Assembly (NCBI GenBank): GCA_963772455.1
Contig: CAVYXJ010000013.1
Location: 106,315-170,314, forward strand
DNA: 64,000 nt
Direction: 5' to 3'
DNA from: Candidatus Bathyarchaeota archaeon
Lineage (GTDB): Archaea; Thermoproteota; Bathyarchaeia; Bathyarchaeales; Bathycorpusculaceae
In this document: piece after piece, positions 776-57,234 of the stretch
How the letters are laid out: each line of letters starts with the position of its first letter
Numbering within the stretch: position 1 is the first letter of the stretch
Made by a program: the position numbers and the translations under genes
The notes under the pieces: model-generated
Databases searched by the model: none
What the model was told of the DNA's origin: nothing
The model's input: the letters and a program-made list of their open reading frames with translations, nothing else

Positions 776-1202
776 GTTATTGGAGACTCCTTCGATATTT
801 GTGAAGGGTTCCTTCAGCGAGAAGCATAAAAAATTCAGGGTTTTCAAGATCTGAAACAAATAATTGAACCGGAATGCCTCTCATTAATTCAACCCTTTCG
901 CTGAAGTGTTCCCAAATTGTAAGAGCTATATTTAAACAAACAGTATAACCCCTTGAGATTAACTTGAAATGTTTCTTTTTCTTTTGATAACTGCTTAGAA
1001 ACAGCCTTGTAAAATCAAAAAATTATTCCTTAATGGTTTCAATGTGCTACAATTTCGCAAAAGACTTTGAAATGAACTAATGAAATTCCATGTAGTCGTT
1101 ATACTTGCACCAAATGGAACAATTATTAAATTATTTGTAACGTGAAAGTCGCAAAATATAAAAATCATGCGCAAATAGAAAATGCTCCTCAGGGTGACCT
1201 CA

Positions 1203-1538
1203 ATGAACTTCTGTCCAGAATGCGGAGGAATACTTCAAGTCATCAAAAAAGGTGCTCCTTCACTCAGATGTCCAAAATGTAAATATCAAAAACAACTAAA
1301 ACCAGAAGAAAGAAAACAGAAAATTAGCATACAATGCGGTAAATCTGCAGAAATTGCGGTCATCGACAAAAAAGCAGCATCCCTAAGGCAAATGCCCATA
1401 GTTAATATTGTTTGCTTAACATGCGGCCACACCCAAAGCGAAACTTGGAACGTGGAAGCTGCAGACGAAACCATACACTCGACTATTACCTTCTTTAGGT
1501 GCACAAAATGTGGAGCAACAAGAAGAGAGTCAGGATGA
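1203..1538 (+). CDS. Transcription factor S / RpoM-family two-zinc-ribbon protein (divergent paralog)
   Basis: MNFCPECG..CPKC N-terminal ribbon and CLTCG..FFRCTKCG C-terminal ribbon; QTRxxDE motif altered. Confidence 0.8.
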   Translation: MNFCPECGGILQVIKKGAPSLRCPKCKYQKQLKPEERKQKISIQCGKSAEIAVIDKKAASLRQMPIVNIVCLTCGHTQSETWNVEAADETIHSTITFFRCTKCGATRRESG

Positions 1539-1854
1539 TTCAACAATGAAAGACTATTGCAACTAAATGTGAGAAATTTCTTCCTTTTAGTGATGGAAAA
1601 TTATAACTAAAAGTTACCTTGGAAGTTTTTTTAAATTCCATTAATTTAATCGATTTTTTTAATTTTTGGTGAGAAAGCTGGATTTAAACCGACTACCTTT
1701 ACCAAGAGGGAACAAAGTGTCACGAGCATTGGTTCAGTTTCTGTCTTTTCATTGGGGTTGGACCCTGAATTCCATGATGAATTTAAGAAGATTCCTACAT
1801 TAATCCAATGTCTTTTTATAATTCTGTAATGTATGTTTTTAAAAGAAAATGTTT

Positions 1855-1994
1855 GGGGTTGTAGTATAGCCAGGTAGTACGGCGGGCTCCAGAAAGCATT
1901 GATTGCTTGACCCGTATGGGGATGACGAAATTCTGGAGCGGTCTACTTTGGGGAAACCCGTTGGTCATCGGTTCAAATCCGATCAGCCCCACCA
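1855..1994 (+). tRNA. tRNA-Trp(CCA) with 63-nt intron (1893-1955) at position 37/38
   Basis: Acceptor GGGGTTG/CAGCCCC, anticodon CCA 1889-1891, T-arm GGTTCAAATCC, encoded CCA end, bulge-helix-bulge (CTCC pairs with GGGG 1950-1953). Confidence 0.93.
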
Positions 1995-2216
1995 TCTTTT
2001 ATTTCAAGTATTAAAAAGAAAACAAAAACAGTATTATTTGATAATGTGAGTAAAGAGAGAAAGTGAACTCATTTTTAACTAAAGTTTCAAACTGTAGCTT
2101 TCTTTGCCTTATCGTAATGTATGCATAAACTATTGAATAACTCTGAGAACCTTTGCCCTCTCGCTTTTTTGCTGCATAAATACTCCAAATTTTTTTCTTT
2201 CTTTTTGTTAATTCAG

Positions 2217-2627
2217 TTATCGGAACAACTTCCATTCTGTTCGCAATAAGATACTCAGAATAACGATACTTGCACAATTAACTATTATGCCAAATGTCAA
2301 AATTCCAACAACCATGCTGGTTATGAATGCAGCAATGGCGGTTAGGCATATTGCGTAAAATCCCACTTTTCTCCACATGAGAAGTGCTATGATTGAGCAT
2401 ATGCTAATTATTGTGTAAATTATAAAAAGAGGTATTGACCAAAGCGGAGAACCACCAAAGAAGCCATCAAAAAATGAGAAAAGAATTGCTCCCAAGGGGA
2501 AGAAAAGTAAACGTATACTAGGTACTTGTGAGAGCAGAAATATCATATTTCCAAGCAGAATTATTACAAGCCAAAAAGTTAACCCTCCGTCACGTTTTTT
2601 GGGCTGGTTTGGCTGGTTTTCTGACAT
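2217..2627 (-). CDS. Hypothetical membrane protein (about 4 TM)
   Basis: ORF with four hydrophobic segments. Confidence 0.65.
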   Translation of the reverse strand: MSENQPNQPKKRDGGLTFWLVIILLGNMIFLLSQVPSIRLLFFPLGAILFSFFDGFFGGSPLWSIPLFIIYTIISICSIIALLMWRKVGFYAICLTAIAAFITSMVVGILTFGIIVNCASIVILSILLRTEWKLFR

Positions 2628-3146
2628 ACTTTTCAATTTGTTTGGTTTTAGCTTTAAGTTTTGCCTTTTGACCTTGATTTTCTGCCTTTCCTAGTGAATT
2701 CAACCGATTCCATAACTCGAAAAGTTCCCATTTAATCGGTAGTATGTGTGCCCATCATTTAACTTATTCTTGGGTGTTGTCCTGACTCTGTTTTTGCTTA
2801 GAGAACTGTTCTGAACGGCTCCTCTATAATTAGCAATAAAAGCGCAGCGGAATTTCTTTATCATAGGTTGCAAAACAGCCTTTCTTTCCAAATGGGTGTT
2901 TCCATTTTTTGTAGATTGCCGTTGTTTCGTTTATGCTTCTTACGAGGTATCCTGTGCTTTTCCTTAAGTGGCTTTTCCAGAAAAATTTTGTGGCGAGTAA
3001 ACATTTTTTTCTGGCGCTTAGTCAATATTTGTCTAGACTACGACCCACCCTGCTATTCAGTGTGCAAATAAGTAACCTGCAACAACAAAATATTTCATTA
3101 ACGTATCCGTACTTTGGAATAAGGCAAGACAAAAAACCGTGGGCAA

Positions 3147-3479
3147 CTATTTGATTGCTATTAACTCGAATTTCTTGAATTGAGATCCTGATTGCTTCAT
3201 AACTTGTAAGCTATGACGAAGTTTAGTGTCCTTCAACGATAGTTCAGTTAGCTCTCTTTCAAGATCTCCGCTAAGATCGGCAGTATATACTTTGATGGTG
3301 GCAAGGTAAATCTTCGCTTTCTTTATTTTATCCAAATCCAGATCGCTTTGTGCATCAAGACAAAATGGAACCCCTTCATCGATGTTTTGGGCATCAAGGT
3401 GGTGTTCTTGTTTGTTTACTTTCATGACGCGAATTCTCCTCTGAACAGTTTCAGCAAACTTCCAATCCGGACTTGACAT
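3147..3479 (-). CDS. Hypothetical protein
   Basis: ORF with GGGGTGA Shine-Dalgarno upstream of ATG 3479. Confidence 0.65.
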   Translation of the reverse strand: MSSPDWKFAETVQRRIRVMKVNKQEHHLDAQNIDEGVPFCLDAQSDLDLDKIKKAKIYLATIKVYTADLSGDLERELTELSLKDTKLRHSLQVMKQSGSQFKKFELIAIK

Positions 3480-3679
3480 ACTTATCACCCCTTTTAGCTA
3501 CATCCTTACATTTTACCTTAACTACATATTTTATTAAGAAAACAACAATAATTAAAAATAAGCAACTTGTTCCATAAAATACGTTGAAGAGAATTCAATT
3601 CTACTGTTAAAAGTGATGGTTTCAGATCAACAAAACAAAGATCTTTAAAAAGCTGTGAATCTTCCTTTTTTCAATAAAA

Positions 3680-3698
3680 AAAACAGAAGGTATATATG
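3680..3698 (+). promoter_or_regulatory. BRE/TATA promoter of 5S rRNA
   Basis: Purine-rich AAACAGAAGG followed by TATATAT about 25 nt upstream of the 5S start. Confidence 0.55.
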
Positions 3699-3720
3699 GG
3701 ATAATTGAACATTAGGGTTG

Positions 3721-3843
3721 GGTTTGCCGGTCAAAGGACTCGGGTTCCACCTGATCCCATTCCGAACTCAGAAGTTAAACCGTGTTCCGTTTCCAGCTGT
3801 AGTGTGGTCTTAGGCCACGTGAACCTGGGAAAGCTGGCAACCT
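3721..3843 (+). rRNA. rrf: 5S rRNA (stand-alone)
   Basis: CACCTGATCCCATTCCGAACTCAGAAGTTAAAC 5S signature; terminal helix TTGCCGG/CTGGCAA; about 122 nt. Confidence 0.93.
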
Positions 3844-3934
3844 ACTTCTTATTAATTTCAATATAGAATTCAACGTGATTTGGCATAGCTTTATAACTTA
3901 CTTTTAATAGTTTTTGGAGAAGTGGTGTCTTAAA

Positions 3935-5044
3935 GTGAGTCTTATTCCCGGAAGCGATTCAATTACACAGATTATTAGTTTGCTATCATACGTGTTCTTC
4001 ATAGTTTTAATTTTCTATGGTCAACGTATTCAAATGTATGTAATGATCCGCGAGGTTGAAAACAGTCTCCATAAACTGCGGCACATAAAAGAAGAAGGCA
4101 GAAAAACCGCTATAGAAACATTAAAAGAAATAGGCAAACCTACAGCCGATCCCTCAGCCCGTGTAGACCGCTACCTAGAATACTTTACAATCGGACCCCA
4201 AAACATGGATCCTGCCGGGATAGTGAACAAGCTTGATCATATCCTAGACGTACGCGACGAACGACTAAAAGAAGAAGTCAGACTAATGGCACCTGCCGCC
4301 CAGAACGACGAAGTGCAAATCAACAACCTTGAAAACACCCTCGAAGCGGCAATGGCGCTTAACTTCATCTACAAAGTCGTGCGCCATTACTATATACAAG
4401 GCAAAAAAACCCTAAGCCTATACGTAATAATGCAACTTCAAATGATCTTGCCCATGGTTATGAAAGAGGCTGAAGCATATTCAAGCGCTCTCAAAGCATT
4501 CGCATATGGGCAACCAATAGGAGATGGTGCTGGACCTTTGGTGGCAGGAAAACTCATGCATGGTTACGAAATTCGTAAACTACCCAAAGACTGTGTAATG
4601 GCAACAGTCCCAATAGAAGGACGAACTGCCCTGGTTATCAAAGCAGAAGGCCCCGGCGGAAACGTAGGCAAACCTGGCGAGGCAGTTGAAGCAGTAATCG
4701 AAGAAAACGAAGGCAAAATCGGTCTTCTAATCATGATCGACGCAGGCTTAAAACTTGAAGGAGAACTCGTAGGCGAAGTCTCAGAAGGCATTGGTGCAGC
4801 AATCGGCGGACCAGGCGTAGATGCATACAAAATTGAAGAAAAACTAACAAAATACAAGATCCGCAACTACGCAGTAATAGTCAAAGAAGATATCGGCGAC
4901 GCAGTATCTCCAATGCGCAAAGAAATACACGATGCAACCGACAAAGTCATCGAACGAGTTAAAGGCGTTATCTTGGAACGAACCAAAGAAGGTGACAAAG
5001 TCATAATCGTTGGCGTCGGCAACTCAATCGGAGTTGGACAATAA
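3935..5044 (+). CDS. DUF1512-family conserved archaeal protein
   Basis: N-terminal TM; PIGDGAGPLVA, KAEGPGGNVG, IDAGLKLEGE, GVGNSIGVGQ motifs. Confidence 0.8.
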   Translation: MSLIPGSDSITQIISLLSYVFFIVLIFYGQRIQMYVMIREVENSLHKLRHIKEEGRKTAIETLKEIGKPTADPSARVDRYLEYFTIGPQNMDPAGIVNKLDHILDVRDERLKEEVRLMAPAAQNDEVQINNLENTLEAAMALNFIYKVVRHYYIQGKKTLSLYVIMQLQMILPMVMKEAEAYSSALKAFAYGQPIGDGAGPLVAGKLMHGYEIRKLPKDCVMATVPIEGRTALVIKAEGPGGNVGKPGEAVEAVIEENEGKIGLLIMIDAGLKLEGELVGEVSEGIGAAIGGPGVDAYKIEEKLTKYKIRNYAVIVKEDIGDAVSPMRKEIHDATDKVIERVKGVILERTKEGDKVIIVGVGNSIGVGQ

Positions 5045-7488: not shown

Positions 7489-8109
7489 TCAAACCAATAG
7501 TTGCTGCAGGACAGTTAAAGTTCCATATCTTCCCAAACTTAAGAGATTGTCGCCTTTGAAAGTTCGCACTGATGCACCCTTAATCTGAACCAAATCACCA
7601 ACAGAGGGTAAGCTTGCCTGTTCACCCCAAAGACAAATCTTAACTTTCCCAGTTTCATCAGTCACCCACAAATTAGTCACCTTTACTCTGCTTCCATACT
7701 GGGTATTTACTATTTTTGGTTCTTCTATCTCAAAAACTTCTGCTTTTAAATTGATCTTTTTCATTCCACGCCGCAGGTTTTGGATAAAAATTAAGTCGAC
7801 TCCAAGATTTTGCTTAGACATTTGACGACGTATTTTGTCAGTGTCCAACCAACTTTCGAAACTTATGTTTTTCCTAAGGAGAAACGTTTCTTCAACTCGG
7901 AACTGCATTATAACTTTGTTAACTTTTGTAATTAGAAAAACTGCTTGATGATTTATGATGCCGCGGTATTCGATTGTTAGGTCTCCACATGTGGATTTTC
8001 GAAGTGCCCTGGCTGAAATTAATGCTTGGTAGAGTTCTGATAGGTACAGATTATATTTTACGGATAGAAATGCTAGGTGCTCGATTATTATTGGTTCTTT
8101 ATAGTTCAT
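7489..8109 (-). CDS. OB-fold (SSB/RPA-like) protein with N-terminal extension
   Basis: C-terminal half DETGKVKICLWGEQ..GDLVQIKGA..F.G typical of an archaeal SSB OB fold. Confidence 0.75.
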   Translation of the reverse strand: MNYKEPIIIEHLAFLSVKYNLYLSELYQALISARALRKSTCGDLTIEYRGIINHQAVFLITKVNKVIMQFRVEETFLLRKNISFESWLDTDKIRRQMSKQNLGVDLIFIQNLRRGMKKINLKAEVFEIEEPKIVNTQYGSRVKVTNLWVTDETGKVKICLWGEQASLPSVGDLVQIKGASVRTFKGDNLLSLGRYGTLTVLQQLLV

Positions 8110-8283
8110 TGTTTTTGCTCCATGGATTTTGCCAGAACGTCTTGAAAAAGCGGTAAGGTTAGCGCCAGTGATTCTTCTTCTTGAAAAATTTCCGACAAAT
8201 CAACTATAAAGGCTTGTGGAGTATATAGGGATAATAAAATATTGGGAGGTTTTTTCCATGCTTTTCTAAATTTTATAGGTTTA

Positions 8284-46722: not shown

Positions 46723-46917
46723 TTATATTACAGCCTTAATTTTAGCGCAGTAAAAATTACCATTTTGACGCACAAATGCCGGGCATTTTCCATTATAGCA
46801 ATTCTCAAGCCATTGACATGGAGCTCGAATTTCATGTATTCGAGGCATGTATCCGCGTGAATTAACCATTTCTTGGTGAGTTTCTCGTTTAGAAATTTGT
46901 TTTAAAATTGTTTCCAT
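46723..46917 (-). CDS. Small 4-Cys hypothetical protein
   Basis: 64 aa, AGGTG SD upstream, C-x5-C-x4-C-x11-C. Confidence 0.55.
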   Translation of the reverse strand: METILKQISKRETHQEMVNSRGYMPRIHEIRAPCQWLENCYNGKCPAFVRQNGNFYCAKIKAVI

Positions 46918-47110
46918 TTCAAAAACACCTTCAAGTTTTGCTAACCTGCTTGAGAAATACTATTGCTAAGTTCCTGTTATTAAAAATGTGTTGCAGTAGT
47001 TGTACAACAACATAAGCATATAAGCACTAACAAGTTCAAAGAAAAAAACTCTGACTTGGGTATACAAAGTGTTATTTAGCAGTTGGCGGCTTTCTTTGTT
47101 TTGGTGCTGA

Positions 47111-48034
<924 letters not shown>

Positions 48035-50251
48035 TTAAGTCGATGTGAATCGATCGAAAGTTGTAAGGGTGCTCATGGAGCCGCAAGAGGGGCATTTATG
48101 CAGGGTGCCGAACCAGTTTTTCTTGCAGTTATCGCAGAAGCTAACTAGGCGGTTGTAGGTGAAGAATTCTATTGATTGATTCTCCATTAGGCGTTGCGTT
48201 AAATTCATCAATGCTTCAGGCGTATATTGGGCATCTTCAAGTTCGATGATGCTGAGGTTTCCGCCAGCATTCAACCCTTTCCATCTCTGTGCTGTCTCAA
48301 GCATCTCAGTTTTTATGCTAAGAAGATCAGCAGCTTTCACTTGGAAACGTTTAGCAGTTGAATAATAGGGTTTTTCCCTTGTTCCTGAAAACTTCACTTT
48401 GGCAACGCCGTACCGTTCAATGTCCAATTGTGCCAGTCGCTCAGATGCTTCTGAGCTGCCAAGTATGACTGGGTAGAGACGTTTGCCATATTTTCTACCG
48501 ATTTTCTGTTTGAAAGCTAAAAGATTCTGGATTGTCTCTTCTGCAAATTTGCGGCTTTCTTCTGAGTTGACGTTTTTTTCGGTGAAGGCTTCCGTGGCTT
48601 CTTGGAGCCCAGCTAAATTAATTATTCGTGAGCAATTTTCAAGTCGGAAATAGGTGTCGCCGCCTGCTTTTTGCAGAAGAAAAGGCAATGAAGTTTTGCC
48701 GAATTGTTTGAGCGCATTATTCTTTATGCTCAACGCACGGGCGGCAAGCTCAAAACGTTCCCGCATCAACTCATAGAACTTGTTTTTGTCCTTCTCACAT
48801 TCAAGAGCAATTCTGGGTAAATTAATAGTTACAAATCCCAAACAACCAGTCCGCAATGTGTCCGTTTCCCAGTCACCTGTCAAATCAGCTGCGAATTTTA
48901 TGCCTGAAGAGGAAAAAGCCACGTTTTCGCTCTCCTTCTTAGTCATGTTAGCAAAATAGGGAATCCCACTTTTCGCCGCTAACTGATGTGCTTTAAGCAA
49001 AACCGATTTAGCGTTTTCGTCACCCAAAGCGGCTTCATTGATTTTTATAACCAGCCTTGGACTAAGCAAAGGTTTACTGATGCTTTCTTCAGCAAAAACA
49101 TCGATGACAAGCGATGCCACAAGTTGGCTTTCTTTTGTGAAGTCGCCATATTTACCGTTTGATTTGCCCTGTGGACCGATGGCTTCTTTTTCAGCAGTAA
49201 ATTTAGGAATCGAAAGCTCAAGACCCAAAGTAGCCTCAGCATGTTGATTGAGGTTTTGAATAAACAAGCGCAAGTTTTCTTTGATCTTTTCAACTTCGTA
49301 TCCCCTAACAAATGGGGCGAGAAAAACATTGAAGTAATTGAAGGTTTGAGTGTGATTTGTTTCTTTGCTAGCGTGCAAAATAACGTTAAATGCAATTGAT
49401 AATGCAGATTTTAGGTCGTTAGGAGTTTCCATGGCGACTTGAAGGGGATTGTCGAGTTTGATACCATGTTGAAAGAAATAGCGTAGATCATGGATGACTT
49501 CGTTGGGTTTCAGTATCCATGTGCCTAAGCCTTCGATGTGGAGGGCTCCTGATAGATGCGCATCGGCAATGTCTCTTGGAAAAACATTTAGCAATGTATA
49601 TTCACCAAGGACGGTTTGGCCTGCTTTGTTAATTGTTGCTTCTGAGTCTTGGGGGTGGTCTTTTGATTCGATTAACGCGGTTACTTCATGAATTGGCATG
49701 CCGACTCTTGTGAGTTTATTGCGGTAATCTTCAAAGCCTTTTTCAACTAAAATGCCGTTCACAACTTCCCTGATTAGCGAGGCTGTTAGATACTTTGTTT
49801 TTGATTTGACGAGGCGTTTTTCAGTTTCTTTAGCGGCTTTCTGAGCCAGTTCCGCTGGAACTTTCGCTTCTTTAATGAGGGAATTAGCTATTTTGTTAAC
49901 GTCAAATTCTTCAAGAGTTAAATGCGATGTGCGAACAACCATACCTCGTGGTTTGACTGCTTTCTTTTCTACGCGGTCAGCAACATCAAGCACCATTTTG
50001 CCAAGGTCAGTTAAGAAATACTTTTTTGCTTCAACATCTGCCTCAACTAAATCAGCTTTTAACAAGAATTTTAGGTGATAAGCGAACCTGCCAGCGTCTC
50101 TGCTGGGATTCATTTTAAGGTGGTTCATAAGTTCAGTGTAAGATAGGGCGCTTTTGTCGAAGAGTAGGTTTAGGATTTGCAGCCTAAGCGGTGATGAGAC
50201 TGCTTTAAGCACTTTGACGCCGCGTGTACGAATCGGAGGCTGATTTACCAT
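48035..50251 (-). CDS. ArsR-HTH + ATP-cone + class III ribonucleotide reductase-like fusion, probably catalytically inactive
   Basis: N-terminal winged HTH; ATP-cone (VVRTS..EEFD..KI..SL); NrdD-like body (AH.SG.LHI, HDLRYF, TINLPRIA, SERLA.LD, GGN, Zn CxxC..CPxCG); ends DRFTST* without GY. Confidence 0.85.
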   Translation of the reverse strand: MVNQPPIRTRGVKVLKAVSSPLRLQILNLLFDKSALSYTELMNHLKMNPSRDAGRFAYHLKFLLKADLVEADVEAKKYFLTDLGKMVLDVADRVEKKAVKPRGMVVRTSHLTLEEFDVNKIANSLIKEAKVPAELAQKAAKETEKRLVKSKTKYLTASLIREVVNGILVEKGFEDYRNKLTRVGMPIHEVTALIESKDHPQDSEATINKAGQTVLGEYTLLNVFPRDIADAHLSGALHIEGLGTWILKPNEVIHDLRYFFQHGIKLDNPLQVAMETPNDLKSALSIAFNVILHASKETNHTQTFNYFNVFLAPFVRGYEVEKIKENLRLFIQNLNQHAEATLGLELSIPKFTAEKEAIGPQGKSNGKYGDFTKESQLVASLVIDVFAEESISKPLLSPRLVIKINEAALGDENAKSVLLKAHQLAAKSGIPYFANMTKKESENVAFSSSGIKFAADLTGDWETDTLRTGCLGFVTINLPRIALECEKDKNKFYELMRERFELAARALSIKNNALKQFGKTSLPFLLQKAGGDTYFRLENCSRIINLAGLQEATEAFTEKNVNSEESRKFAEETIQNLLAFKQKIGRKYGKRLYPVILGSSEASERLAQLDIERYGVAKVKFSGTREKPYYSTAKRFQVKAADLLSIKTEMLETAQRWKGLNAGGNLSIIELEDAQYTPEALMNLTQRLMENQSIEFFTYNRLVSFCDNCKKNWFGTLHKCPSCGSMSTLTTFDRFTST

Positions 50252-50355
50252 GCCTTATTCACTCCAGAACTCCTCAAACTATGGGGTTTACCTATTATGA
50301 AGGTGCAGATTTTAAACTTAACTAAGAAGCGACATTTGCCAATCATGTTTAACGC

Positions 50356-52552: not shown

Positions 52553-53977
52553 ATGAAAATATTCATTGTTCAATTTCCTTTCGGCGTAGCAGCCTTCGAC
52601 GAAAACCATGGCTTAGTCGAAAAAGCTCTGTTTCCAAAAAACGCTCAGGATGCAGCAAAAAGCCTAGTTAAAACCGAGTCTGGAAAAATATCTGACGAAG
52701 TTTCATCACTAATCTCACTTCTAGCAAGCGTTGGTTATGACGTATTTGTTTTTGAATCCGCCAACTTGGCAGCGGAAGCTCAAAAGAAGATGAAAGTCAA
52801 CGTTGAAGTAGCTAAGCCAGCAGACACTGCAGTGCTCCATTCACGCATGGGTGAAATAGCCATCGAATCAGGTTTTGCTAAAGATGAACAAGAACTAAGC
52901 GAATGGAACCGCAGTGTCAGCTTAGAACTTGCTAAGATAAGAATTAAAGGCGCCTCAGAAAAACGGGATTTAATTGTTGCTCAAAGCATTCAAACACTCG
53001 ATAGTTTAGATCAAACAGTCAACCTCTTTATGGGCAGACTGCGAGAATGGTATGGCGTTTATTTCCCTGAACTTGATCGCTTAATCGAAAAGCATGAAAC
53101 TTACTCACGACTCGTTACGAACTTGGGTGATAGGGAAAACTTTACAGTTGAGAATTTAGAGAGAGAAAATATTCCAAAAGAACGAACCCAACTTGTTGCG
53201 AAAGCAGCGGAATCATCCATGGGCGCAGACATTGCAGAATCAGACCTTGAGATGGTACAAGCTTTAGCCAAAGATGTTCTTAACTTCTATTTGTTACGTA
53301 AAAAAATGGAAGATTATGTTGAGCAAACGATGGAGGAATTGGCGCCAAACGTACGTGCAGTTGCAGGTGCACTTCTCGGAGCGCGCTTAATCGCTATGGC
53401 GGGCAGCCTACGAAACTTGGCGATGAGACCAGCAAGCACCATACAAGTCATAGGCGCAGAAAAAGCCCTCTTCCGCTCACTAAAAACAGGAGCCCGCCCA
53501 CCAAAACACGGCTTAATCTTCCAACATACCCTGCTTCATGATGCAAAAAGGTGGCAACGTGGAAAAATCGCAAGAGTCATAGCAGGCAAACTCGCAATAG
53601 CTGCCAGAACAGATGCTTTCGGAGCAGGCCACTATATTGGAGACAAATTAAAAGCTGACATTAACAAACGCTTAGAAGAAATCCAAATTAAATACAAAGA
53701 CCCTCCAGCACCAAAAGAAGCCAAACCAAGACCCGAAGGCTCATTCGAACGCCGTGAACAACGACCACCACCGCGAAGAGATGACCGAGGAGGATTCAGG
53801 GGTGGCGGCAAAAACTTCGGAGGAGGCGACAGAGGTCCAAGACCACCACGTCAAGGTGGCGGTGGTGGAGGCGGAGGGCGCAACTTCAGTTACGGTGGCG
53901 GACGAGATAGAGGCGATCGACGCGGCCATGGCGGCGGTCCAAATCGGGGACCAGACAGACGTGCACCTCAAAGTTAA
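52553..53977 (+). CDS. nop5: C/D box RNP subunit Nop5 (Nop56/58) with RGG-rich C-terminal tail
   Basis: RLREWYG.YFPEL, APN, PASTIQV.GAEKALFR, PPKHG. Confidence 0.94.
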   Translation: MKIFIVQFPFGVAAFDENHGLVEKALFPKNAQDAAKSLVKTESGKISDEVSSLISLLASVGYDVFVFESANLAAEAQKKMKVNVEVAKPADTAVLHSRMGEIAIESGFAKDEQELSEWNRSVSLELAKIRIKGASEKRDLIVAQSIQTLDSLDQTVNLFMGRLREWYGVYFPELDRLIEKHETYSRLVTNLGDRENFTVENLERENIPKERTQLVAKAAESSMGADIAESDLEMVQALAKDVLNFYLLRKKMEDYVEQTMEELAPNVRAVAGALLGARLIAMAGSLRNLAMRPASTIQVIGAEKALFRSLKTGARPPKHGLIFQHTLLHDAKRWQRGKIARVIAGKLAIAARTDAFGAGHYIGDKLKADINKRLEEIQIKYKDPPAPKEAKPRPEGSFERREQRPPPRRDDRGGFRGGGKNFGGGDRGPRPPRQGGGGGGGGRNFSYGGGRDRGDRRGHGGGPNRGPDRRAPQS

Positions 53978-55554: not shown

Positions 55555-57234
55555 ATGAGCGAAAAAGATGTAACCAAATTCTTGCAAATCTTAGGATTAT
55601 CAAAAAGAGAAATTCAAGTTTATATGTTCCTTGCAAAAAGTGGAGTACAATCAACTAGCTTCGTTGCGAAGCGACTCAAGATGGAGCGTGTTCAGGCTTA
55701 CCGTACTTTTAAGAAACTGCAGGAAAAAGGGTTTATTGAAGCTACATTGGAACGGCCAACAAGGTTCACTATAGTTGCTTTTGAAACCTTGGTTGATAAT
55801 TTCATAAATACAAAAAAGAGTGAAGTTGTTAATCTAAATGATCAGAAACAGGATCTTTTGGTTGCTTGGCAATCGATAAGTGCGCCAGAAACCGAATATC
55901 CAGTTGCTAAATTCTCAATAATCACCGGTAAAAAGAAGATTCATGCTAAGATGATTAGCATGATTGAGGAATCTAAATCTCAAATTATTGTTTTAACAAC
56001 TGCTCTGGGCATAATTCAGGAAGACATTGCAGGCATCTTTGATGCTGCTGTTACTCCATCCCAAGAGCGTAAAGTACAGGTCCAAATAATAACTGAAATT
56101 GTTCCAGAGAACCTTAAAACAGTGGATAGAATTGATCAAAGTATAGCTGAAGATAAATTAAACATTAAACTACGTCATGTGGGCATGAGTTCCAAGTTTT
56201 TCCCTCGATTTCTAATCAAAGACGAAGAAGAAGCCATCCTTTATGCTCCGTTTGGAAATGAAGCGTCTGTTTTAAACCTTGAAGATGAAGGATTATGGAT
56301 AAATGACAAGATGTTCATTTCTGTTTTGAAAGCGTTTTTTACACAGATGTGGCAAAGCGGCGTTGATGCTTCAAGACGAATAGACGAATTAAAGAGTGGA
56401 ATCCCAATCGCCGAAACCCTCGTTATTAAAAGTGTTGAAGAAGCATGGAGCAAAGTGACTAAGGTACTTGAATCGGCTAAAAAAGAAATTGTAATAATCA
56501 CCTCTTCACAGAGCATCAATCGGCTCGCTGAAGGTGATCCAATAGTAAAATACTTAAAAAAAGGCTTAAGCACACGAATAATGGCATCAATCGACTTAGA
56601 TAATCTTGAACCAGCACAGAAACTGGCAAAAAACTTTGAAGTAAAACATGTACCAATAAGTTATATGACAATGATGTTGGTTGATGACAAACACTTGTTC
56701 ATGTTCAAGATGCCTTCACTTAGTGATGATGCTGCAGAATCAGCCTTCTATTTTGCAGATACATTTTATTCTAGTGACCCCAGCCAGATTGAACGAGTAA
56801 GTGAAATGTTGAATGACATTTGGAAACGCGGCATTGATATTACAGAAATTAGCAGTCAAGCAGGAACAAAACTTCCAACAGTGGAAATTGCATCATCTGA
56901 GACAATAGCTAAAACAGTTGATAAGATGCTTGTTAATAGCGTCAATTCGATCTTAATCACTGAGAGCAACAAACCAATTGGCATTATTAACGATAGAGAA
57001 CTGCTGCGAGAGATTGTTAATGCGCAAAAAGATCCAGTTAAAACTCTTGCAAAAGACATCAATTATACTCCACTTATCGTTCTCGAAGGAGATGAATCAA
57101 TGCTTACAGCAATGAAAATTATGCAAACAAAAAAATTCAAGCGAGCAGCCATGGTTAAGAATGGACAATTAATTGGTATGTTGACAGAAGAAGCAGCCAA
57201 AAAAGCATCACTACAAAAGAAACCTGCTGTCTAA
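55555..57234 (+). CDS. TrmB-family regulator with two PLD-like effector domains and a C-terminal CBS pair
   Basis: LGLSKRE..VY..L HTH, L..KGFIE..RP; two repeated effector domains ending W..G; GIINDREL and LIGMLTE CBS motifs. Confidence 0.85.
   Translation: MSEKDVTKFLQILGLSKREIQVYMFLAKSGVQSTSFVAKRLKMERVQAYRTFKKLQEKGFIEATLERPTRFTIVAFETLVDNFINTKKSEVVNLNDQKQDLLVAWQSISAPETEYPVAKFSIITGKKKIHAKMISMIEESKSQIIVLTTALGIIQEDIAGIFDAAVTPSQERKVQVQIITEIVPENLKTVDRIDQSIAEDKLNIKLRHVGMSSKFFPRFLIKDEEEAILYAPFGNEASVLNLEDEGLWINDKMFISVLKAFFTQMWQSGVDASRRIDELKSGIPIAETLVIKSVEEAWSKVTKVLESAKKEIVIITSSQSINRLAEGDPIVKYLKKGLSTRIMASIDLDNLEPAQKLAKNFEVKHVPISYMTMMLVDDKHLFMFKMPSLSDDAAESAFYFADTFYSSDPSQIERVSEMLNDIWKRGIDITEISSQAGTKLPTVEIASSETIAKTVDKMLVNSVNSILITESNKPIGIINDRELLREIVNAQKDPVKTLAKDINYTPLIVLEGDESMLTAMKIMQTKKFKRAAMVKNGQLIGMLTEEAAKKASLQKKPAV

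Follow-up and report, generated by a model that had tools for sequence, protein, structure and literature searches.

The 738-aa protein encoded in the analysed stretch of Candidatus Bathyarchaeota archaeon DNA (GCA_963772455.1, contig CAVYXJ010000013.1, positions 106,315-170,314; the whole 64,000-nt stretch is referred to as the window) is best explained, with a probability of roughly 0.6, as a transcription regulator that senses nucleotides and is linked to dNTP supply, an analogue of NrdR from outside the NrdR family. It would be a paralog of the class III ribonucleotide reductase (RNR) NrdD that has lost catalysis but still functions, and it carries an N-terminal ArsR-type winged helix-turn-helix (wHTH) domain. 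Active NrdD is a dimer, and a dimer of the NrdD scaffold would hold two wHTH domains out to DNA. The (d)NTP-pool sensor would consist of the retained allosteric parts, namely a variant ATP-cone of very high conservation and perhaps also the nucleotide sites of the barrel, and its state would tune the transcription of dNTP-supply genes, foremost among them the RNR gene, found immediately downstream in many lineages. Genes of the family of wHTH-fused dead NrdD proteins to which the window protein belongs (hereafter the fusion family) are often found just upstream of a working RNR, and the family thus probably has a part in controlling how DNA building blocks are supplied.

The coding sequence starts with ATG and its TAA stop occupies positions 48035-48037, directly abutting the TAA of convergent pyrB, which ends at 48034 and leaves 0 nt between the two reading frames (Table 1). 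As the earlier note had claimed, no GY is recoverable beyond this stop, RxxG[YF] being absent from all three frames over the following 240 nt. The architecture proposed there, an HTH, an ATP-cone, an NrdD barrel and a Zn ribbon, was confirmed by the Pfam domains HTH_5 (residues 20-70, 31 bits, cut-off 22), DUF7347 (residues 14-88), ATP-cone (PF03477, residues 104-176) and NRDD (PF13597, residues 204-734, E 3.4e-71, profile positions 10-538 of 562). The ATP-cone match is marginal in this search, at 27.7 bits against a cut-off of 25.8, and reaches 33.1 bits in the genome scan. On the NCBIfam NrdD equivalog TIGR02487 the protein scores 258.1 bits, under the cut-off of 326.35, and the genome's own NrdD scores 568 bits. 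The AF2 model of the protein has a mean pLDDT of 87.4 and a pTM of 0.79.

Table 1. Features of the 738-aa coding sequence and its immediate surroundings, in window coordinates
Feature	Position	Strand	Evidence
Whole CDS, 738 aa: wHTH, variant ATP-cone, dead NrdD barrel, Zn ribbon	48035..50251	-	ORF, Pfam/NCBIfam, AF2
ArsR/SmtB-type winged HTH, residues 14-98	49958..50212	-	HTH_5, DUF7347, PDB profile matches, AF2
Variant ATP-cone, residues 104-186, VRTS...YLTAxLIRE...YRxKLTRxGxP	49694..49942	-	PF03477, alignments, AF2
Alpha/beta barrel of the NrdD type, residues 199-700, with E251 in place of the beta-A Cys and S449-I451 in place of the finger-loop Cys	48152..49657	-	PF13597, NrdD alignments, conserved-column census
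Zn ribbon, C706, C709, C720, C723	48083..48136	-	All four Cys invariant, 44/44 family rows
Glycyl-radical loop remnant FDRFTST, Ser737 at the Gly position	48038..48058	-	Alignments, orthologs with the same end
pyrB, convergent neighbour outside the 738-aa protein	47114..48034	+	OTCace_N and OTCace domains
Own promoter block of the 738-aa gene: BRE/TATA-like TTAGTTAAGTTTAAAA, then ATAATAGGTA about 25 nt downstream	50286..50327	-	34-sequence alignment

Conservation within the wHTH domain peaks in the recognition helix, DAGRFAYHLKFL, which is nearly invariant throughout the fusion family. The invariant residues of the domain are G54, F56, Y58, H59, L60, Y78 and G84; the predicted secondary structure in the AF2 model runs a1-a2-a3-aR-b1-b2-a5. 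In the family alignment of 44 sequences, invariant residues are packed most densely in the variant ATP-cone. Over 85 aa this cone shares 40% identity with the N-terminal end of an active archaeal NrdD (E 4e-20), and AF2 models it as a beta-hairpin with helices. The cone reported in the earlier note is therefore present over its cut-off, but in a variant form that reads VRTS (within VVRTSH) at the position of the canonical KRDG. Canonical ATP-cones carry a basic pair in the N-terminal hairpin (VxKRDG) with a role in phosphate binding; the K-R of the cone in the genome's own NrdD aligns with T108-S109 of the window protein, and the invariant R107 stands one position before. The lack of the canonical K-R pair was counted against the regulatory reading.

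When the protein was aligned with T4 NrdD (HMMER, 1h78, E 2e-12), C79 and C290, here taken to be the beta-A cysteine and the finger-loop thiyl cysteine, fell on E251 and I451, and N311 fell on C470. BLASTP against the genome's own active NrdD (25% identity over 680 aa, E 4e-39) placed the cysteine of GPYCV at E251 and MCCR at S449-G450, and residues 430-469 contain no cysteine at all. Both alignments thus leave the two active-site cysteine positions without a cysteine, as the earlier note had read by eye. At the C-terminus, DRFTST followed by the stop aligns with SRVVGY of real NrdD, which puts Ser737 in the place of the Gly; the next 25-35 residues of NrdD have no counterpart. The glycyl-radical residue of T4 NrdD is given as Gly580 in Table 1 of PMC2795772. 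The earlier description of a protein ending exactly at the RxxGY loop was correct in that the glycine is gone, but the chain does extend as far as the Gly position and stops just after it.

These losses extend across the fusion family. In an HMM-based census, which replaced a crude column-occupancy scoring of the HTH that had mislabelled long true NrdDs, 81 of the 150 cluster representatives carried a wHTH; 62 of these also had the Zn ribbon, with 59/62 having neither RxxG[YF] nor the finger-loop CR and 0/62 having both. Among the 70 full-length wHTH representatives, none had Cys at the T4-C79 column and none had all three radical residues, in contrast to the earlier note's scenario of orthologs that keep RxxGY and Cys, whereas nine HTH-less representatives had all three. 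The position equivalent to T4 N311 is variable in the family (C, N, S or I). Columns on which 15 or more of 17 active NrdDs agree were checked in 44 family rows; 31 were retained in at least 80% of the rows, including cone residues, H232, G235, D255, NLPR 477-480, G548/E551, R605/D610, Y630, GG 663-664 and the four Zn cysteines, and 40 were lost, including both cysteines, CR, GY and the HxHD motif. The alignment with NrdD that had been suggested as a check therefore gives a family-wide loss of Gly and Cys, together with retention of cone residues and of many motifs of the structure and the nucleotide sites.

The 738-aa gene is not a broken or merely truncated copy of nrdD. Among the homologs listed, the best 120 share 75-99% identity with the protein, are mostly 734-747 aa long and nearly all have the same four Pfam domains, and the tails of the four orthologs that were read all finish in TFDRF. 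Against 10 orthologs, omega was 0.03-0.07 overall and low in each domain (0.03-0.08 in the barrel), the least saturated pair (dS 0.57) giving 0.063 overall and 0.077 in the barrel. The checks named in the earlier note, conservation of the fusion and dN/dS, thus gave a conserved fusion under strong purifying selection. In a quick LG+G4 tree search with support by SH-aLRT only, all 44 family rows were gathered behind a single branch (SH-aLRT 99) that arises from within the archaeal NrdDs. The family is old and has a single origin, in an archaeal NrdD. Named members come from Bathyarchaeia, Nitrososphaeria, Methanomethylicia and Asgard archaea, and their public annotation is 'anaerobic ribonucleoside-triphosphate reductase'. 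One close homolog of the window protein, P0054, is 82% identical to it. No published description of the family was found in a full-text search of the main texts of openly accessible papers, and the family is large and apparently unstudied.

An RNR gene lies directly downstream of the fusion gene, on the same strand, in 6 of the 27 GTDB families examined, and no verified RNR gene adjoins it in the other 21. The downstream gene is nrdD, recognised by RPFCQxxD and SR[IV]TGYY, at loci L014-L018, L020, L029 and L112, and nrdJ (TIGR02504, 728 bits, cut-off 400) in the ammonia oxidisers, at 22 of 24 loci and separated from the fusion gene by 130-435 nt; nrdJ also follows in GTDB family f7. Two candidates were removed from the verified RNR neighbours, because the downstream 'NrdD' at L019 is a paralog that lacks the HTH and has Ala in place of the Gly, while the NrdD-like ORF at L124 has no GY. 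As the fusion family is itself a duplicate of NrdD, a position next to nrdD could be left over from a tandem duplication, and only the nrdJ cases escape this objection. NrdB was found in 0/5 genomes with nrdJ downstream of the fusion gene, and NrdD and NrdG over cut-off were likewise found in 0/5 each (four ammonia-oxidiser genomes and one other, all carrying the fusion gene), so that the link in these genomes is to RNR as a function and not to a paralog. The same five genomes speak against pairing with active NrdD, as entertained in the earlier note, as a general mechanism. Other neighbours recur as well, with pyrB/pyrI downstream of the fusion gene or of the fusion-RNR pair in 16/27 GTDB families, and mevalonate-pathway genes (thiolase/HMG-CoA synthase or HMG-CoA reductase) upstream in 6/27 and at the Asgard-like locus L160, the one locus covered from Asgard and Methanomethylicia genomes; these associations are conserved as much as or more than RNR adjacency and, like the 21 families with no verified RNR neighbour, weigh against the regulatory reading.

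The window's own clade has lost the ancestral RNR gene downstream and keeps the convergent pyrB, which lies at most 400 nt away in 73 of 74 testable related loci, and no NrdG, NrdR or NrdJ was found within 7 kb of the gene at any of 80 loci. The separate intact nrdD and nrdG that the earlier note had proposed looking for are present in a canonical nrdR-nrdD-nrdG operon on a separate contig, C5, of the same genome, and its statement that no nrdG lies nearby also held, as none occurs in the window and the genome's only NrdG over cut-off is the one beside nrdD on C5. The genome's own NrdR is encoded by a separate 148-aa gene (TIGR00244, 154.6 bits, cut-off 124.65). Because a canonical NrdR already accompanies nrdD-nrdG here, the 738-aa protein is not simply 'the' NrdR substitute in this genome; the NrdR analogy first drawn in the earlier note gains support from the adjacency to class III or class II RNR genes in 6/27 families. 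In a phylum sample of 301 genomes, NrdR over cut-off occurred in 17, all in the window's GTDB family, f1, which is exactly the clade where the fusion gene is uncoupled from nrdD. Passages of PMC9110341 describe NrdR as rare in archaea. The absence of pyrI beside pyrB was confirmed, but pyrI does exist in the genome (C5:10153-10614), and the use of pyrB as a regulatory hint was not upheld, the convergent arrangement being conserved relic synteny and not evidence for a pyr regulon.

One alternative explanation for these patterns, unlikely but with evidence of its own, is that the protein is a transcription factor with a regulon other than RNR (pyrimidine or general nucleotide, isoprenoid/mevalonate, or growth/cell-cycle genes), the RNR adjacency being synteny inherited from a tandem duplication of nrdD. 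The pyrB/pyrI and mevalonate-pathway associations described above, including pyrB at 73/74 loci of the window's clade, fit such a regulon, as does the strong constraint on the gene in f1 even though nrdD there lies elsewhere, together with NrdR. However, the convergent orientation of pyrB precludes a common promoter, an alignment of 43 sequences, read over 22 of its rows, gave no block common to the promoters of the fusion gene and pyrB, and duplication leaves unexplained the non-paralogous nrdJ downstream in two lineages without a class III system. Decidedly improbable is a role exerted mainly through binding to the active RNR, whose activity the protein would modulate as a pseudo-subunit or allosteric partner, the wHTH then serving protein contacts or being accessory. 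Adjacency to RNR genes, retention of the barrel and of the NrdD-type N-terminal cone common to active archaeal NrdDs, and the dimeric state of real NrdD are all compatible with such a role, but the family persists in the presence of class II NrdJ alone, where a heterodimer would need a different interface, the ArsR-type wHTH features include a nearly invariant recognition helix, and the 738-aa gene and nrdD are on different contigs in the window's genome.

It is very unlikely that the protein is still an enzyme, carrying out non-radical nucleotide chemistry in the barrel and using the wHTH for autoregulation in the manner of bifunctional enzyme-repressors. Every residue known for RNR chemistry is gone, the N311-equivalent position varies between C, N, S and I, and the most conserved segment is the cone and not the active-site region, against which the 31 retained NrdD-conserved columns (among them NLPR, RxAxLD, YY and GG) and the strongly constrained barrel (omega 0.03-0.08) could be set. 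That the gene is a decaying or truncated nrdD pseudogene, fused by chance to an upstream HTH gene, is hardly conceivable: the absent C-terminal glycyl-radical domain and the score under the NrdD equivalog cut-off would be expected of such a relic, but the listed best 120 homologs are alike in length and domains, the four tails that were read end alike in TFDRF, omega is about 0.05, and the family spans several archaeal classes.

The regulatory reading invites comparison with several known systems. As in NrdR, a DNA-binding module is combined with an ATP-cone-type module, the genes of both often adjoin RNR genes of any class, and nucleotide sensing by a domain borrowed from RNR would be an idea common to both; two adjacent palindromes before the ammonia-oxidiser nrdJ recall the paired layout of NrdR boxes. 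Unlike NrdR, the window protein does not have TIGR00244 among the NCBIfam matches listed for it (E up to 1), is 738 aa long as against about 150, contains a whole dead RNR barrel and a cone without the canonical K-R motif, and is predicted to bind DNA via an ArsR-type wHTH instead of a Zn ribbon. NrdD itself (T4 1h78 and the genome's own copy) has a homologous barrel, Zn ribbon and N-terminal cone, but in the fusion family the beta-A Cys, finger-loop Cys-Arg and glycyl-radical GY plus tail are missing and a wHTH is added; the window member falls under the equivalog cut-off, and the family occurs in genomes without the activase NrdG. A profile from 13 N-termini of the family matched PDB entries for ArsR (6j05, 3e-4), HlyU (3jth, 3.7e-4) and CadC (1u2w, 1e-3), such that the likeness to ArsR/SmtB lies in the wHTH profile and the predicted topology, with E-values of just about 1e-3 to 1e-4. 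The sensing site of ArsR/SmtB proteins for metals or metalloids is built from Cys/His, whereas residues 1-100 of the window protein contain no Cys and no Cys/His metal site, NCBIfam HTH_metalloreg scores 32.8 bits (under the cut-off of 55), and the wHTH is followed in the same chain by about 640 aa of sensor module, where ArsR/SmtB proteins stand alone at about 100 aa.

One-component regulators with enzyme-like sensor domains are exemplified by MocR/GabR, which join an HTH to an aminotransferase-like domain, and by ROK repressors. The fusion family would resemble these in pairing an HTH with a full-size, metabolite-binding enzyme fold of little or no catalysis, and would differ in that its scaffold is a glycyl-radical RNR barrel with an allosteric cone, for which no report as a regulator scaffold was found in the full-text literature search. 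For the control of RNR transcription in archaea, this large and deeply conserved family offers a concrete, testable candidate, found beside RNR genes of two classes and in ammonia oxidisers that can be cultivated. As a pseudoenzyme it would likewise be striking, a whole radical enzyme having been kept for its allosteric sites. Under its current annotation, a class III RNR would be falsely assigned to aerobic ammonia oxidisers, among other genomes.

Candidate operators were sought in the promoters of the associated RNR genes. Of 22 nrdJ promoters from ammonia oxidisers, 10 contain GTCAA-N5-TTGAC with at most one mismatch, always 60-100 nt ahead of the nrdJ start, with 0/22 for each of the other GTCAA/TTGAC spacers between 0 and 9; TATGAA-N1-TTCATA occurs in 11/22 of the same promoters, and GTCAA-N1-3-TTGA precedes nrdD at 4 of 10 non-AOA loci, all of these counts being drawn from related sequences and not from independent events. 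The spacing of the candidate palindrome varies by lineage (N5 vs N1-3). Tentatively, and with some doubt, a wider proposal can be made, in which the fusion family would be the missing archaeal counterpart of NrdR and a master regulator of dNTP supply in TACK and Asgard archaea, its sensor being the whole dead class III RNR (the variant cone plus the dimer-interface specificity site), binding palindromes of the GTCAA-N5-TTGAC type before whichever RNR class is used, and having been kept through the switch from NrdD to B12-dependent NrdJ in ammonia oxidisers.

The window's genome lacks the GTCAA palindrome at the promoters of the fusion gene, pyrB and nrdR, its nrd operon carrying NrdR-box-like repeats instead, and no block common to the promoters of the fusion gene and nrdR was found (28 aligned sequences, 30 nrdR loci). 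A k-mer search across 14 intergenic regions between the fusion gene and RNR (k = 9-11, 1 mismatch) gave top counts of 12, 9 and 8 of 14; as shuffled controls reached maxima of 12, 9 and 6, this cross-lineage result is not convincing. GATC-rich inverted repeats in the ammonia-oxidiser intergenic regions were set aside, occurring at 3-19/kb vs 4-5/kb locus-wide, with other intergenic regions reaching 16/kb. The fusion gene does have a conserved promoter block of its own, which is kept in 34 aligned sequences (the window and 33 close relatives) irrespective of the upstream gene, and a 42-nt PWM of this block has a single match in the 2.45-Mb genome, namely its own site.

The best-supported reading of the window protein is a putative transcription factor derived from a catalytically dead class III ribonucleotide reductase (RNR); this reading is assigned a probability of roughly 0.6. 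Among solved structures, its best sequence matches are class III RNRs (9d3x, 1e-12; T4 NrdD 1h78, 2e-12), and against the NCBIfam NrdD equivalog it scores 258 bits, below the cut-off of 326. As the NRDD match ends before the end of the profile (see table), the last 24 profile positions are absent from the protein. An AlphaFold2 model built from a 44-sequence alignment of its family, the winged-helix (wHTH)-fused, catalytically dead NrdD paralogs, was confident (mean pLDDT 87.4, pTM 0.79), with a predicted secondary structure that fits an a1-a2-a3-aR-b1-b2-a5 winged helix at the N-terminus, a cone of beta-hairpin and helices in the middle, and a large alpha/beta domain with a small terminal beta ribbon in the remainder. 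The cone is of a variant type, 'VRTS...YLTAPLIRE...YRHKLTRLG', which is common to the family and active archaeal NrdDs (40% identity over 85 aa, E 4e-20) and forms the family's densest run of invariant residues.

Domains of the window protein, and the canonical RNR operon elsewhere in its genome
Feature	Location	Strand	Evidence
Whole ORF, 738 aa	window 48035-50251	(-)	ORF call
HTH_5, ArsR-type HTH	residues 20-70		Pfam, 31 bits vs cut-off 22
DUF7347	residues 14-88, within N-terminal HTH region		Pfam
ATP-cone	residues 104-176		Pfam, 27.7 bits vs cut-off 25.8
NRDD	residues 204-734		Pfam, E 3.4e-71, profile positions 10-538 of 562
nrdR-nrdD-nrdG operon	L001 (G000:C5:88582-93309), ORFs 701-1147, 1144-3270, 3285-3962

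In the HMMER alignment to T4 NrdD, in which C79, C290 and N311 are taken here to be the active-site Cys and Asn residues, these positions correspond to E251, I451 and C470. BLASTP against the active NrdD of the same genome (25% over 680 aa, E 4e-39) likewise places the Cys of 'GPYCV' on E251, and 'MCCR' on S449-G450; the two alignments place the finger loop one or two positions apart, and residues 430-469 contain no Cys whichever is used. At the C-terminus, 'DRFTST' and the stop codon pair with 'SRVVGY' of real NrdD, such that Ser737 occupies the Gly position (Table 1 of PMC2795772 gives Gly580 for T4 NrdD) and the residues found beyond it in NrdD are missing. The stop codons of the window gene and the convergent pyrB abut (gap 0 nt), and no RxxG[YF] was found in any frame within 240 nt past the stop. 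These results confirm what an earlier note had observed from the sequence, namely that the active-site Cys positions lack Cys, that the protein ends at the glycyl-radical loop and that no GY is recoverable in other frames. The loss is selective: of the columns that at least 15 of 17 active NrdDs share, 31 were kept in at least 80% of 44 family rows and 40 were lost, with the retained set including cone residues, H232, G235, D255, NLPR 477-480, G548/E551, R605/D610, Y630, GG 663-664 and the four Zn Cys.

The window gene is not a broken nrdD copy, and the alternative of mere truncation is countered by orthologs of similar length with the same tail, by low dN/dS and by the family-wide absence of the full catalytic set. 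The best 120 homologs listed were 75-99% identical, mostly 734-747 aa long and nearly all carried the same four Pfam domains, and the four sequences inspected all finished in the 'TFDRF...' tail of the window protein. Nei-Gojobori dN/dS between the window gene and 10 orthologs, a set leaving out ortholog L035 (frame ending at 651 aa), was 0.03-0.07 overall and low in all four regions; omega for the least saturated pair (dS 0.57) was 0.063 across the whole gene and 0.077 for the barrel. A search of 1.84 billion cluster representatives returned 1870 matches at E<=1e-3 and 338 at E<=1e-30. Among the best 150 representatives, a wHTH was called by HMM (E<=1e-5) in 81, of which 62 also had an identifiable Zn ribbon; 59/62 lacked both RxxG[YF] after the ribbon and the [MSTA][GC]CR finger motif, two kept an RxxGY string, one showed a chance match to the finger motif and no representative had both. 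In an alignment including 70 wHTH-bearing representatives of 600-810 aa, the T4-C79 column was Cys in 0/70, a Cys lay within four columns of the finger-loop position in 12/70, and the Gly column showed Gly in 13 rows, a different residue in 32 and a gap in 25. All three radical residues were present in none of the 70 but in nine of the HTH-less representatives aligned with them, indicating that the catalytic set has been lost family-wide although Gly has not been lost everywhere. Several NrdD-like representatives of 1000-1700 aa (P0169, P0170, P0187, P0188, P0210, P0223, P0224 and others) matched in two to five separate stretches, suggesting possible inteins or other large insertions; most ends inspected carried a C-terminal R[IV]TGY glycyl motif, with P0210 and P0223 lacking it.

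Gene context was compared across 27 GTDB families, comprising the window's own and 36 loci fetched from 26 others, of which seven (L014-L020) were selected for two adjacent matches and the rest were representatives with coordinates in the phylum search. A same-strand RNR gene lay directly downstream of the family gene in 6/27 families: an nrdD with 'RPFCQxxD' and 'SR[IV]TGYY' in f4, f5 (with an intervening glutaredoxin gene), f6 and f9, and a class II RNR gene in f7 and f12. Downstream NrdD-like genes without GY, in f14 and f38, were excluded from this count. Family f12 is assigned to the ammonia oxidisers (AOA) given archaeal AmoA in 4/4 genomes tested; its downstream protein matched TIGR02504 NrdJ at 728 bits (cut-off 400), and the nrdJ start lay 130-435 nt past the family gene in 22/24 AOA loci, with no nrdJ found within the 3.5-kb stretch in the other two. 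In five genomes with nrdJ downstream, NrdB was found in 0/5, as were NrdD and NrdG over cut-off. Since the family descends from a duplicated NrdD, a tandem duplication could by itself have left it beside nrdD; adjacency to nrdJ is not explained in this way, and the association with RNR genes is therefore read as functional. Beyond the RNR genes, pyrB or pyrI followed the family gene, or the gene-RNR pair, in 16/27 families, and mevalonate-pathway genes lay upstream in 6/27 families and in the only Asgard-like metagenome locus fetched. A small conserved ORF of about 55 codons with two CxxC pairs was also seen in AOA loci between thiolase/DUF35-type genes and the family gene (L021 about 8000-8200, same place in L022-L024).

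Palindromes in the RNR promoters are candidate binding sites, as leads only. GTCAA-N5-TTGAC occurred with at most one mismatch in 10/22 AOA nrdJ promoters (0/22 for each other spacer from 0 to 9) and with at most two in 16/22, against a background of 0.83 per kb, always 60-100 nt 5' of the start codon; TATGAA-N1-TTCATA occurred about 21 nt upstream of it in 11/22. GTCAA-N1-3-TTGA was present upstream of nrdD in 4/10 non-AOA loci; all these counts are drawn from related sequences, and palindrome spacing varies by lineage. A cross-lineage k-mer search performed no better than shuffled sequences, and the motif was absent from the window's own promoters.

Within the window's clade, a convergent pyrB lay within 400 nt in 73/74 loci with enough downstream sequence, and no NrdG, NrdR or NrdJ was found within 7 kb of the family gene in 80 related Bathyarchaeia loci. 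Given this pattern, the pyrB neighbour is a leftover of the wider arrangement after departure of the RNR gene. The absence of a nearby nrdG, as previously noted, holds across these loci; intact nrdD and nrdG were located in a single operon with nrdR on contig C5 of the window's genome (92% complete), in which no class I or II RNR large subunit was found. The NrdD of this operon (708 aa) is over cut-off, as is the NrdR (148 aa; TIGR00244 154.6 bits, cut-off 124.65). NrdR over cut-off was present in 17/301 genomes of the phylum sample, every one in the window's own family, and in 30/31 genomes of a separate sample of that family. The operon is of canonical bacterial type, and the 50% identity of its NrdD to the best phage-collection match hints that it was acquired whole. 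The nrdR promoter carries conserved repeats resembling NrdR boxes by eye. This genome also has a perfect 9-6-9 inverted repeat, TTAACCAAT-N6-ATTGGTTAA (L001 480-503), some 200 nt upstream of nrdR, but its conservation does not extend to the nearest relative, L131. Stand-alone frames of about 90-135 aa, matching the NrdR model in its ATP-cone part only (positions ~47-124), were seen in several phylum-sample genomes across at least seven GTDB families (e.g. G128:C2:2435-2662, G017:C8:152392-152613).

The proposal that the protein is functionally analogous to NrdR is thus supported in part. The putative link to RNR regulation gains support from the family's conserved position beside RNR genes of two classes; in the window's clade the family gene is uncoupled from such genes, and the window's genome has a canonical NrdR. 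Despite this separate NrdR, the window gene is under strong constraint, and in this clade a conserved BRE/TATA block of its own precedes the family gene irrespective of the gene upstream. The protein would resemble NrdR in outline of action but is no member of the NrdR family, is homologous to NrdD but fails each catalytic criterion tested, and has an ArsR-like wHTH without the Cys for metal sensing. Fusion of an HTH to an enzyme-like sensor domain is a known kind of architecture (MocR/GabR); no published description of an RNR barrel in this role was found in full-text searches of open-access articles.

A quick LG+G4 tree, computed without the HTH region from 44 family members and 17 NrdDs lacking an HTH, placed the family on one side of a branch (SH-aLRT 99); with the genome's own NrdD as root, the family was nested among archaeal NrdDs. 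Its sister was an HTH-less paralog directly downstream of a family gene (L019 3177-5084 (-)), which keeps the beta-A Cys, carries Ala in place of the glycyl-radical Gly ('SRSIAFY') and may represent an intermediate form on the way to the dead family. Matches at E<=1e-20 occurred in 210 genomes of the 301-genome sample, a count pooling family members and true NrdDs; 43/43 genomes of f12 had a single match, beginning at the HTH. By their source names, homologs with the same domains come from Bathyarchaeia, Nitrososphaeria, Methanomethylicia/Verstraetearchaeota and several Asgard groups, with Nanobdellota also among Atlas clusters as a lead only. In databases the homologs are annotated as 'anaerobic ribonucleoside-triphosphate reductase', 'ArsR family transcriptional regulator' or 'helix-turn-helix domain-containing protein'.

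Elsewhere in the window, a stretch of some 40 nt, GCAGT.G...CAACAACA.AAGCATATAAGC.CTAAC (about 46900-46960), lies about 150 nt upstream of pyrB, is conserved in most of 22 rows inspected of a 43-sequence close-relative alignment, and overlaps or borders a small Cys-rich ORF (46723-46917 (-)). A Nop5/Nop56 homolog (52553-53977 (+)), with fibrillarin after it, has a long Gly/Arg-rich C-terminal tail, which looks unusual for an archaeal Nop5. A 559-aa protein (55555-57234 (+)) that carries TrmB HTH and effector domains together with a CBS domain is another multi-domain one-component regulator near the window gene.
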